DNA of 19,080 bases, taken from NCBI GenBank assembly GCA_964592775.1, contig CAZQFX010000041.1:1-19080 (forward strand), in the 5' to 3' direction. Below the pieces are notes generated by a model. The model searched no databases. It had not been told where the DNA came from and saw nothing but the letters and a program-made list of their open reading frames with translations. This DNA is from an uncultured Actinomycetota bacterium (GTDB lineage: Bacteria > Actinomycetota > Geothermincolia > Geothermincolales > RBG-13-55-18). Made by a program: the position numbers and the translations under genes. Numbering within the stretch: the first letter of the stretch is position 1; each line of letters opens with the position of its first letter. Below, piece by piece: positions 6,540 to 7,785 of this stretch.

Positions 6540-6809
6540 TCAGCAGCAATCGCAGGAGGCCTCTTTGCGGCGGAGCAGCGCCTCCTTCATCATGGCGAAG
6601 GCGCAGCCCACGCCGCTGTCCACCTTGATCGCGCCGGCCTCGCAATTCAGGCGGCAGGCGCCGCACTCCATGCACGCGTCCCGGTCCACCAGCCTTACGG
6701 CGCCGTCGCCATCCTCGAACACCCCGTGGGGACAGGCGTTGATGCACATCCCACAGCGGTCGCACAAGGCCGGGTCGTACTCGAGGGTGTTGATCCTACC
6801 CCTGGCCAT
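6540..6809 (-). CDS. hgcB: HgcB, 2x[4Fe-4S] ferredoxin of the mercury-methylation pair
   Basis: 89-aa ORF with two CX2CX2CX3C motifs (CDRCGMCINACP and CMECGACRLNCE), an additional Cys in GVGCAF and a C-terminal SCDCC tail. SD GGAAGGGG precedes the ATG. The start overlaps the hgcA stop by 14 nt. Confidence 0.88.
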   Translation of the reverse strand: MARGRINTLEYDPALCDRCGMCINACPHGVFEDGDGAVRLVDRDACMECGACRLNCEAGAIKVDSGVGCAFAMMKEALLRRKEASCDCC

Positions 6810-7785
6810 TGCCCCTTCCTTTCACGCTGTGCGCAACCCGTTGCGCGACGTTCAAGAGCAGGCCGGCGCCCGCCATCCCCGCCATCACCGGCACGTAAAT
6901 GTTTATCTCCCGCTTTACCCCGCTGGGTGAAGCGAAGGTCGTGCTGCCCGTGAAATTCAGCCCCAGGAAGGCCGTGATAGGCGGCAGGACCAGCGCATAC
7001 GATACCGCTTTCAACGCACGCAACGGCCGGCTCGTATCCCCGTCTCCGGCAATGGCGGCGTACGCGGCGCCCGCGCCGACCAGCCCGCCCAGGAAGAAGC
7101 CCTTGACGCTGAACTCCTCGCCGGGAAGATACGGCAGCAGCAGTGGGAATCCCGCGAGGCCCGCGAGGGAGGCCGAGGCGACCCCCGCCGCGCCGACGGC
7201 GTCACCGGCGACGTACGCGAGGGCCGATGCGCCCGCTACCACCGGCAAGGCCGTTTTCGCCTCGACGGGGATGAGCACGGCCCGGTCTTTCAGGCCGAAG
7301 CGCACCCGCCTCATCTCCGCTGTCGCCTTGCCGCCCTCCAGGAACTCCCGTACGTCACCGGCCCGCACCGGGCCGAACCTCACGCGGAATCCGGAGCGCT
7401 TCCTGACCTCGTGCGCGCATACGCCGGCCGCGCCGAGTTGCGGCACTATCAGGGTGCGGTGCCCGACGACCTGGGCCAGCCCGGTCTTCTCGATCCTCGC
7501 CACCAGCTCATCCGTGCCGAAGGTGCCCTTGCCGGCGGCGCACCACACGTTTATCCCCTTGGTATCGAGCACGAGTATGTAGGCGTCGAGGTCTTCCAGC
7601 GCCCCGCGCAGGGCATCGAAGGAGAGCCGGTAGTTGGCGCTAACGAACACCGGGGAGTCGGCGCCCGCCTCTCCGAGACGGTAGAGCCCGGGCCTAACGC
7701 GCCACTCGTTCCTCTTCACGCCCACGCGCGCGAGGAAGCGCACGAGACGGTCGGCCGCCGTCACGCGCGATGTCGTCACCCCCAT
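6796..7785 (-). CDS. hgcA: HgcA, corrinoid protein of the mercury-methylation pair
   Basis: 329-aa ORF. The diagnostic cap-helix motif G-I-N-V-W-C-A-A-G-K-G-T-F is present (NVWCAAGK = nt 7528-7551). The N-terminal half is CFeSP-like (SPVFVSANYRLSFDALR...LVLDTKGINVWCAAGK...IVPQLGAAGV). The C-terminal half is a Gly/Ala-rich multi-pass membrane domain. An upstream in-frame TGA at 7825-7827 limits the N-terminus. GTG 7779 is an alternative start with better SD spacing. Confidence 0.92.
   Translation of the reverse strand: MGVTTSRVTAADRLVRFLARVGVKRNEWRVRPGLYRLGEAGADSPVFVSANYRLSFDALRGALEDLDAYILVLDTKGINVWCAAGKGTFGTDELVARIEKTGLAQVVGHRTLIVPQLGAAGVCAHEVRKRSGFRVRFGPVRAGDVREFLEGGKATAEMRRVRFGLKDRAVLIPVEAKTALPVVAGASALAYVAGDAVGAAGVASASLAGLAGFPLLLPYLPGEEFSVKGFFLGGLVGAGAAYAAIAGDGDTSRPLRALKAVSYALVLPPITAFLGLNFTGSTTFASPSGVKREINIYVPVMAGMAGAGLLLNVAQRVAHSVKGRGNGQG

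Follow-up and report, generated by a model that had tools for sequence, protein, structure and literature searches.

A probable hgcC-hgcA-hgcB operon with a predicted selenocysteine-containing HgcA in an uncultured actinobacterial lineage

Three neighbouring genes, hgcC, hgcA and hgcB, are located on the minus strand of the window, by which the whole analysed stretch of 19,080 nucleotides is meant. The earlier note had recognized hgcA and hgcB and had missed hgcC, the third gene of the cluster. Including the promoter, the region 6540-8262 (minus strand) probably constitutes a three-gene operon, in which each of the two gene junctions is a 14-nt overlap, one of hgcA with hgcB at 6796-6809, as had been read before, and one of the end of hgcC (7892) with the corrected start of hgcA (7905). 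The features are the following:

6540-6809, minus strand: hgcB, encoding a 2x[4Fe-4S] ferredoxin of 89 aa
6796-7905, minus strand: hgcA, corrected; it encodes a corrinoid membrane protein of 369 aa from a GTG start (7905-7903), in front of which stands AGGAGGAG
6844-7251, minus strand: C-terminal membrane domain of HgcA with five predicted TM helices (five hydrophobic segments by hydropathy)
7354-7701, minus strand: corrinoid-binding domain, a homologue of the large subunit of CFeSP (Pfam CdhD, 51 bits)
7528-7551, minus strand: cap helix NVWCAAGK, with the Cys122 codon at 7540-7542
7797-7811, minus strand: SECIS-like hairpin, +17 to +31 counted from the UGA; it has a 6-bp GC stem, and +22 to +25 form its apical loop G(G)UC
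7825-7830, minus strand: TGC-TGA, Cys26-Sec27 of a CUGP motif (Sec predicted), the TGA column being conserved in relatives
7892-8185, minus strand: hgcC, encoding an HgcAB-associated protein of predicted AbrB/SpoVT fold, 97 aa (99 aa from the alternative ATG 8191)
8202-8235, minus strand: operator-like ATCAG, ACAG and CTGAG boxes between the -10 element and the hgcC ribosome-binding site
8234-8262, minus strand: sigma-70-type promoter of hgcCAB, with TTGACA (8262-8257), a 17-nt spacer and AATAAT (8239-8234)

The closest named genomes are Actinomycetota MAGs, Ca. Anoxymicrobiaceae and Ca. Geothermincolia, and the host quite likely belongs to an uncultured Actinomycetota lineage near the latter two. 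The GC content is 0.63-0.65 over the whole window and 0.69 over hgcAB; the genome can fairly be called GC-rich, but "very GC-rich", as it had been described, is generous.

The identities of the hgc genes were observed directly. The open reading frame first read as hgcA (6796-7785, minus strand, 329 aa) contains NVWCAAGK and reached 389.3 bits (E = 1e-116) with the HgcA equivalog model NF040863, which exceeds the cut-off (275) by 114 bits; the match extends over positions 4-324 of the 325 in the model. Whether the protein is HgcA or a CFeSP or HgcAB-like paralogue was decided by the relative HMM scores: the HgcAB-like fusion model gave 187 bits, which is 98 below its own cut-off (285), and the CFeSP gamma model, the cut-off of which is 306, gave 74 bits, thus HgcA is the best-scoring family. 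HgcB passed the cut-off of NF040864 (99 bits) marginally, by 0.3 bits (99.3 bits, E = 8e-29), and several Fer4 Pfam families match it as well. Its translation contains, as noted earlier, two CX2CX2CX3C motifs (C16/19/22/26 and C46/49/52/56), a GVGC cysteine (C69) and a C-terminal SCDCC (C86, C88, C89), and hgcB stands directly 3' of hgcA in nearly all related loci. With the E values given above, these features are very far from what chance would yield.

The predicted architecture of HgcA agrees with the corrinoid-binding N-terminal half and the multi-TM C-terminal half that had been proposed from the first reading. In addition to the Pfam CdhD match, the corrinoid domain is matched by PDB 2h9a/4c1n (E = 7e-14, residues 28-150 of the short form), where the cap helix aligns with the CFeSP helix, and the cap-helix Cys, which is known to be essential and the codon of which was confirmed by translation, is invariant in 72 homologues. 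The AF2 model of the orthologue P0006 (pLDDT 83.7) has five long helices in the membrane domain; Foldseek ranked the deposited HgcAB model 9a0b first (E 1e-19) and CFeSP next, at E 1e-8 to 1e-9. The PDB sequence search returned no experimental HgcA structure, the sole HgcAB entry being a computational model. The scores with curated HMMs and the motifs, together with the fold and the TM topology predicted, support HgcA and HgcB as genuine orthologues, rather than CFeSP or fused HgcAB-like paralogues. It could be argued that the pair is a non-methylating paralogue with another native corrinoid function, since the native role of HgcAB is not established and HgcB is barely at the cut-off; the HgcA margin over its cut-off and the shortfall of the HgcAB-like model make this highly improbable, as does the fact that the genes are separate and unfused, that HgcA has both its cap-helix Cys and five predicted TM helices, and that HgcB has its C-terminal cysteines. 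We know of no actinobacterial methylator that has been tested by experiment.

The 5' boundary of hgcA at ATG 7785, and with it the short N-terminus ascribed to HgcA in the earlier note, did not stand. Upstream of this ATG the frame is open through a single TGA (7825-7827) to the GTG at 7905, which has a strong Shine-Dalgarno sequence, and the extension is conserved in nine Sec and four Cys forms. hgcA most probably spans 6796-7905, starting 120 bases further upstream than first read, and the apparent short N-terminus is an artefact of a reading that stopped at a UGA which is very probably a Sec codon; the full protein has 369 aa, with V-C-U-G-P at residues 25-29. Nine distinct actinobacterial sequences (66-79% HgcA identity) contain in frame TG[CT]-TGA followed by GPP[ED]T[AP]GP, the TGA being found at the same column in L001, L002, L003, L081, L083, L086, L165 and L168, and the flanking peptide C-U-GPPETAGP is kept alongside it. 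Four orthologues (P0006, P0015, P0030, P0040) have Cys at this column. The corrected boundaries, as well as the conservation of the UGA and of its Cys orthologues, are direct observations. The leaders of the relatives vary in length by whole codons only, each has an AGGAG-type ribosome-binding site ahead of its start, and one relative of 69% identity (L082/P0031) is without the CU leader. TGA is the ordinary stop of 8 of the 18 window genes, hence it is not reassigned genome-wide. None of selA, selB, selC and selD was found within the 19-kb window, and the tRNA scan detected no tRNA there, hence no tRNA-Sec.

A hairpin following the UGA fits the bSECIS consensus in all the Sec forms folded (in the size of the loop, in the G within its first two positions and in the spacing of 16-37 nt) and also the E. 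coli G23/U24 geometry. The 7 Sec forms folded gave it a local dG of -7.7 to -10.5 kcal/mol, and two of three Cys forms have a degraded or altered version. On seven Sec forms RNAalifold found zero covariation and preferred a different hairpin of invariant bases, thus it cannot choose between the two competing hairpin models. The single-sequence fold of the region after the UGA was no better than shuffles (z = -0.55), and synonymous-site conservation there (0.64 against 0.58 +/- 0.06, about 1 SD above background) was not significant. The Rfam scan (E <= 1) detected neither a SECIS family nor a cobalamin riboswitch near the hgc genes. Because the TGA and its flanking peptide are kept, Cys takes its place in four orthologues and a hairpin of SECIS consensus follows the UGA, HgcA is most probably a selenoprotein of 369 aa with the pair Cys26-Sec27.

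This assignment has to be weighed against a simpler gene model, in which HgcA is a 329-aa non-selenoprotein starting at ATG 7785 and the TGA is the true stop of a separate ORF, a 26-codon upstream leader (7828-7905) possibly coupling the translation of hgcC and hgcA. The 325 positions of the NCBIfam HgcA model are wholly covered by the short form, the public annotations of P0010, P0008 and P0013 are likewise short, a weak GGAAGG lies immediately upstream of ATG 7785, and the SECIS support is suggestive only. Nevertheless, the relatives have Ile, Val or Thr where the window has this ATG, so there is no conserved start at that column; GPPETAGPADLEG, between the TGA and ATG 7785, is conserved in frame with HgcA; the four Cys orthologues continue through the TGA column without a break; and the CUGP motif is common to the distant Desulfovibrio and Geobacter HgcAs. 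We regard the short form as unlikely.

The selenocysteine-containing form is in line with the literature, as Haft (2022) described Sec-HgcAs of 363-400 aa, a range into which the 369 aa fall, with a PCUGP motif in the N-terminal extension, and found the CUGP motif in ND132, GSU1440 and 18 other HgcAs; a 2026 review lists HgcA as a CU selenoprotein family. Recombinant ND132 HgcA methylated Hg in E. coli lysates (PMC11588087, where the cloned boundaries are not stated). The recombinant presumably corresponded to the annotated short reading frame, and if so, the arm would be accessory and not essential.

The product of hgcC reached 117.5 bits with NF040962 (cut-off 70 bits), and in 70 of 145 loci hgcC is the gene that immediately precedes hgcA. 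The gene neighbourhood had been described as different from the classical contexts; it is indeed unlike the arsR-type context of Desulfovibrio and Geobacter, but it is not unusual, being the known hgcC ("TA-gene"/AbrB) type with its own NCBIfam model. In the hgcC frame GC3 climbs to 0.83-1.0 only from about 8173 onward. TIGR01439 gave 29.8 bits (versus 28.3), and the AF2 model (pLDDT 71) was matched by Foldseek to AbrB-N, SpoVT and MazE at probability 0.99, although with E = 0.05-0.2. HgcC carries two Cys-Cys pairs, at residues 10-11 and 64-65 (99-aa numbering); among 51 HgcC homologues C64-C65 is invariant and C10-C11 is at least 90% conserved. Two other readings of this region were rejected: a toxin-antitoxin role of hgcC, there being no toxin partner gene and the family being tied specifically to hgcA, and a 543-aa ORF (7892-9523, minus strand), which according to its codon-position GC is a shadow of the plus strand URO-D gene, save for its last approximately 100 codons, which are hgcC.

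The promoter matches the consensus at 11 of 12 positions and is the only promoter-like site in 6300-8700. Its conservation was directly observed in the alignment of seven actinobacterial loci, where the -35 TTGAC and the -10 A.AATCAG are invariant. TCAG/CTGA boxes with a spacing of about 10 nt are found at the same place in L081, L162-L165 and L168, and they are a candidate HgcC binding site; most likely HgcC would bind these boxes over the promoter and regulate the operon. A more speculative proposal is that HgcC is not a generic AbrB-type repressor but a thiol-based metal(loid) sensor or Hg(II) hand-off protein, which through Cys64-Cys65 and the N-terminal Cys-Cys might join HgcA (by its Cys-Sec arm) and HgcB (by its Cys-rich tail) in a three-protein thiolate/selenolate relay and might also gate transcription at the TCAG/CTGA boxes, hgcC-hgcA-hgcB being a mobile cassette common to methanogenic archaea and this actinobacterial lineage. 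We consider this possible but rather doubtful.

On the opposite strand a divergent gene (8651-9724, plus strand) encodes a member of the URO-D superfamily (Pfam, 164 bits). The product resembles MtaA, but it is not a certified member of the MtaA/CmuA family, as its scores are below the cut-offs of all the methyltransferase models (PRK06252, 232.9 against 244; TIGR01463, 167.6 against 235.4; MtaA, 174.8 against 400). The best of these scores, 233 bits with a methylcobalamin:CoM-methyltransferase-like model, compares with just 29 for HemE, an identity which was rejected, and together with the HxC...C zinc-site-like motifs (HVCG and PPCG) it raises the idea of a four-gene methyl-transfer system, in which an MtaA/CmuA-like zinc methyltransferase coupled to HgcA would load or unload the methyl-corrinoid. 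The gene divergently adjoins hgcC in the window and in L001, L081, L162 and L165-L168, and in L163 hgcCAB has another URO-D gene, together with a B12-binding protein, some 2 kb away. The adjacency is, however, seen only in relatives of at least 75% HgcA identity, where the flanking block (metallophosphatase, CysK, PilB, STAS) is syntenic too, and it is missing in L003, L163 (as orthologue), L164 and all the non-actinobacterial loci. Moreover, the MtaA-like protein is 83-87% conserved compared with 75-78% for HgcA, which suggests an independent housekeeping role, and SAM is enough as methyl donor in vitro (PMC11588087). Since the adjacency is confined to close relatives sharing the whole synteny block, the linkage was set aside; a coupling of the two systems appears quite improbable.

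Taken together, the locus is in our judgement likely to be an hgcCAB operon with a Sec-containing HgcA, which would methylate mercury and would be regulated by HgcC. The three genes would be transcribed from the conserved sigma-70-type promoter. HgcA would consist of a flexible N-terminal arm with Cys14, Cys19 and Cys26-Sec27, followed by the CFeSP-like corrinoid domain, in which the cap-helix Cys122 would ligate the cobalt, and by the five predicted TM helices. As published HgcAB work suggests, HgcB would reduce the corrinoid to Co(I), and the corrinoid would then be methylated and hand its methyl group to Hg(II); in vitro SAM methylates the corrinoid (PMC11588087). The thiol/selenol pairs of the HgcA arm and of the HgcB tail may capture and present the Hg(II).

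Surveys of hgcAB depend on right gene models, and a plain ORF reading cuts the actinobacterial hgcA at the predicted Sec codon, as do the public short-form annotations of the relatives. Such truncation conceals a predicted metal-binding arm with Cys-Sec, which may play a part in the capture of Hg, and it hides a possible selenium dependence of methylation. To our knowledge, hgcAB is the sole genetic marker of microbial methylmercury production. The hgcC-type context, described as mainly archaeal, is extended here to Actinomycetota, and the conserved promoter with its candidate operator gives a handle on the regulation of the methylation genes. The locus refines annotation and offers a clean test case; the current understanding is unchanged.

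Compared with known systems, the large subunit of CFeSP (AcsC/CdhE; PDB 2h9a, 4c1n, 4djd) shares the Rossmann-like corrinoid-binding domain with HgcA, but it lacks the cap-helix Cys, the TM domain and the Sec arm, and in their stead carries a [4Fe-4S] domain at the N-terminus as well as a TIM barrel. The hairpin resembles the E. coli fdhF-type SECIS in that it lies inside the gene, shortly after the UGA, with the upper stem-loop at about +17 to +31 and G23-U24 in a GGUC apical loop; unlike the latter, it has no obvious equivalent of the bulged U17, its stem is pure GC and it is without covariation support.

HgcA and HgcB were reportedly first described by Parks et al. in 2013, in Pseudodesulfovibrio mercurii ND132 and Geobacter sulfurreducens PCA. 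The HgcA studied here has in common with theirs a corrinoid domain that includes the N(V/I)WCA(A/G)GK cap helix, a membrane part of five TM helices, and in the N-terminal extension the CUGP Sec motif (both were re-annotated by Haft), and the adjacent 2x[4Fe-4S] HgcB likewise has a mid-chain Cys and C-terminal Cys residues. It differs in the residue before CU, which is Val here (VCUGP) and Pro there (PCUGP), in the 14-nt overlap of hgcA and hgcB, in the AbrB-type hgcC upstream, where ND132 has an arsR-like regulator, and in the host, an uncultured actinobacterium and putative methylator.

The individual elements are already described: actinobacterial hgcAB in 2020, Sec-HgcA in 2022 and hgcC in 2023 and in NCBIfam. 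McDaniel et al. (2020; PMC7438021) reported, in the sections drawn on here, hgcAB in the Actinobacteria MAGs OPB41, Thermoleophilia, UBA1414 and RBG-13-55-18, that is in the same phylum and probably in the same class-level lineages as the present locus, and noted that in 112 genomes hgcAB is preceded by a putative regulator, to which they gave no name; unlike the present analysis, those sections do not describe the Sec extension and do not name hgcC. Zhang et al. (2023; PMC10349881) found hgcA preceded by a "TA-gene" (prlF/mazE/abrB), chiefly in methanogens, and stressed its archaeal bias. The HgcC of the window is similarly a small protein, of predicted AbrB/MazE fold, encoded directly upstream of hgcA, it is 48-63% identical to the methanogen copies and has the same invariant Cys-Cys pair; unlike the archaeal HgcC it is bacterial, and the stop codon of its gene overlaps the corrected start of hgcA.

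The identification of hgcA and hgcB in the earlier note was correct and its gene model was incomplete. The minus-strand frame 6796-7785 codes for 329 amino acids with the NVWCAAGK motif (Cys codon 7540-7542) and overlaps by 14 nt, as had been described, with the frame 6540-6809(-), whose 89-residue product carries two CX2CX2CX3C clusters, the GVGC Cys (C69) and the C-terminal SCDCC. The GC content is 0.63-0.65 over the window and 0.69 over hgcAB. HgcA scored 389.3 bits against the HgcA equivalog model NF040863 (cut-off 275), while the fused HgcAB-like model (187 bits, cut-off 285) and the CFeSP gamma model (74 bits, cut-off 306) both stayed below their own cut-offs, and the assignment to HgcA instead of a CFeSP-like paralogue was upheld. 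HgcB passed NF040864 marginally (99.3 bits, cut-off 99). Pfam recognized nothing in the two proteins beyond a CdhD-type corrinoid domain and families of the Fer4 group, and the PDB sequence matches were all CFeSP large subunits, with the HgcA cap helix aligned to the corresponding CFeSP helix. The expected membrane part was recognized by hydropathy, which gave five hydrophobic stretches in the C-terminal half, and in an orthologue, P0006, modelled at full length with AlphaFold (72-sequence alignment, pLDDT 83.7, pTM 0.76), where five long helices lie within residues 217-372. For this model Foldseek ranked the deposited HgcAB model 9a0b first (E 1e-19) and CFeSP next. None of the three outcomes that the earlier note named as refuting the call was observed. 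The nearest HgcA proteins, from metagenomes and Actinomycetota MAGs, are 75-79% identical. In reference genomes the top loci reach 75% (an uncultured Actinomycetota MAG), 68% (Ca. Anoxymicrobiaceae) and 66% (Ca. Geothermincolia), and the next group, at 57-59%, comprises Syntrophobacterales, Methanoperedens and Chloroflexi. Actinobacteria with hgcA, class UBA1414 among them, are recorded in McDaniel et al. 2020 (PMC7438021).

The HgcA N-terminus had been regarded as short; this did not hold, since the frame runs upstream of ATG 7785 through one TGA to GTG 7905. The Haft preprint describes HgcAs annotated as short whose frames can be continued upstream across a single UGA, so that the proteins reach 363-400 aa and carry a conserved PCUGP motif. 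In the window the leader reads GTG(7905) A D H E D T P A I T G D C A E A P C R T E P A V C(7830-7828), and continues as TGA(7827-7825) G P P E T A G P A D L E G M(7785). A TGA stands at the same column in eight other, distinct sequences from actinobacteria (L001, L002, L003, L081, L083, L086, L165, L168), all with GPP[ED]T[AP]GP after it and an open, acidic, Cys-containing leader before it. The leader lengths of these Sec forms vary by whole codons only, and an AGGAG or GGAGG ribosome-binding site was found at every leader start (gcAGGAGGAGtgccGTG in the window). ATG 7785 is not a conserved start, because the relatives have Ile, Val or Thr there. In four orthologues, P0006 (77% identity), P0015, P0030 and P0040, the frame is uninterrupted and the UGA column holds Cys (e.g. 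...PTCCGPPDTAGPADLEG...), and such pairing of Cys and Sec orthologues is the standard selenoprotein criterion (review PMC13188914). Ordinary TGA stops terminate 8 of the 18 window genes, therefore TGA is not reassigned genome-wide. On these sequence comparisons the corrected hgcA is most probably 6796-7905(-), 369 aa, with Cys26-Sec27.

The leader varies among other HgcAs. At about 7960-7975 in L165, L166 and L167 (protein P0013, at least 24 contigs) Arg precedes Sec (…KPR-U-GPPE…), thus the conserved feature is the Sec codon and not the CU pair. The actinobacterial HgcA of L082 (P0031, 69% identity) lacks any Cys/Sec leader (MREQDDIAAVATTGG…), therefore the arm can be lost. Cys-rich leaders lacking Sec (SCC, SCSCS, CCC) occur in most archaeal and some bacterial HgcAs (L005, L006, L014, L016, L018 and many methanogen loci), and leaders without Cys in many Chloroflexi.

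Folding of seven Sec forms gave, in each, a GC hairpin covering +17 to +31 relative to the UGA (local dG -7.7 to -10.5 kcal/mol); its apical loop (+22 to +25) is GGUC in six of them and GGGC in the seventh. It fits the E. coli SECIS geometry, where nt 15-31 form the upper stem-loop and the loop contains G23/U24 (PMC8659212), and also the bSECIS consensus of a loop of 3-9 nt that has G in its first two positions and lies 16-37 nt from the UGA (PMC13188914). Of the Cys forms, the very closely related L162 kept the hairpin, in L163 it is lost (-1.9 kcal/mol, GGAC) and in L164 altered (GGAC). Single-sequence folding after the UGA was no better than that of shuffles, RNAalifold chose a different hairpin with zero covariation, synonymous-site conservation after the UGA was not significantly raised (0.64 vs 0.58 +/- 0.06) and the Rfam search gave no SECIS family match; for these reasons the hairpin is only suggestive of a SECIS element. 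No Sec machinery is encoded within the window.

The other features considered here are the following.

2766-3272, plus strand: DEDD exonuclease gene, inserted between hgcB and LUD
3337-5565, minus strand: 742-aa gene behind a c-di-GMP-II riboswitch, weak hydrolase and InlB-B-repeat matches only
5616-5700, minus strand: c-di-GMP-II riboswitch RF01786, full-length, 52.3 bits, gathering score 53.5, E = 3.5e-9
5823-6434, plus strand: TetR gene, inserted between hgcB and LUD
8262-8234, minus strand: near-consensus promoter (TTGACA, 17 nt, AATAAT), about 43 nt upstream of hgcC
8651-9724, plus strand: URO-D-superfamily protein resembling MtaA/CmuA, 460-bp gap to the divergent hgcC
10988-12100, minus strand: 370-aa ORF, second insertion, between metallophosphatase and CysK; GC3 0.88, strong coding signal
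13424-15100, plus strand: type IV pilus ATPase of PilB type; its N-terminal MshEN domain is of the c-di-GMP-binding kind

Upstream of hgcA, the 543-aa ORF 7892-9523(-) is spurious, being nearly all an antisense shadow of the URO-D gene, and illustrates how long ORFs mislead at 65% GC. According to the codon-position GC pattern its last ~100 codons are a real gene, hgcC. Alignment with relatives favoured a start at ATG 8185, giving 97 aa; the stop at 7892 leaves a 14-nt overlap with the corrected hgcA start. The product exceeded the cut-offs of NF040962 ('HgcAB-associated protein HgcC'; 117.5 bits, cut-off 70) and of the AbrB-domain model, and its AF2 model (pLDDT 71) resembles AbrB-N, SpoVT and MazE. 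Homologues form about 535 clusters. Among 51 aligned homologues C64-C65 is invariant and C10-C11 at least 90% conserved. With enough upstream sequence available, 70 of 145 HgcA loci carried hgcC, including all examined actinobacterial loci and many methanogens; the named loci from Chloroflexi, Firmicutes and Syntrophobacterales lacked it. This is the 'TA-gene', proposed as a mainly archaeal regulator by Zhang et al. (PMC10349881). Seven actinobacterial loci have the -35 and -10 elements of the promoter unchanged; downstream of these elements come TCAG/CTGA boxes spaced about one helical turn, to which HgcC may bind.

The order STAS, PilB, CysK, metallophosphatase, URO-D (divergent), hgcC, hgcA, hgcB, LUD, carboxylesterase is shared by L081 and L165-L168, and by the shorter contigs L001 and L162 to their limits. 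In these relatives LUD directly follows hgcB, where the window has the extra insertion (3337-6434 region); a TetR gene also lies just 3' of hgcB in L164. The riboswitch, scoring slightly under its gathering score, forms part of the 742-aa gene's leader, and the MshEN domain of PilB, in this putatively anaerobic actinobacterium, is a second c-di-GMP-linked feature in 19 kb. For the 370-aa ORF no Pfam or NCBIfam match was found, and the relatives have no gene there.

The URO-D protein is not HemE (29 bits vs 233 for MtaA/CmuA-like), stays below every family cut-off and has zinc-site-like HVCG and PPCG motifs; its host is a bacterium without coenzyme M. In close relatives it is 83-87% conserved, more than HgcA. 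Its orthologue adjoins hgc only in relatives with at least 75% HgcA identity, all sharing the whole block, and such adjacency was not found in L003, L164 or any other lineage examined; since it is restricted in this way, we attributed the gene's position to lineage-specific synteny and left it out of the hgc system. Elsewhere among the actinobacterial hgcCAB loci, L163 has nearby (2519-4252) a URO-D gene that forms a pair with a B12-binding corrinoid protein, and L164 has nearby (1-2439) ArsR, thioredoxins and an SBF transporter of the Acr3-like kind; these recall the reported arsenic-gene association of bacterial hgcAB.

Taken together, the locus is most probably a selenoprotein-type hgcC-hgcA-hgcB operon of an uncultured actinobacterium, with predicted Sec insertion. 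As known from the literature, HgcB would reduce the HgcA corrinoid, Co(I) would be methylated by SAM, as in vitro (PMC11588087), and the methyl group would then be passed to Hg(II). The Cys-Sec arm, disordered in the P0006 model (residues 1-38), would be well placed for Hg(II) capture. It is probably accessory, because L082 has no arm and recombinant ND132 HgcA, active in E. coli lysates (PMC11588087), was presumably the annotated short reading frame, the cloned boundaries being unstated in that paper. All four Cys residues required in ND132 (HgcA C93; HgcB C73, C94 and C95; PMC11588087) are matched here by HgcA C122 and HgcB C69 and C88/C89, and every element of the hgcC-hgcA-hgcB locus has previously been described in other places.
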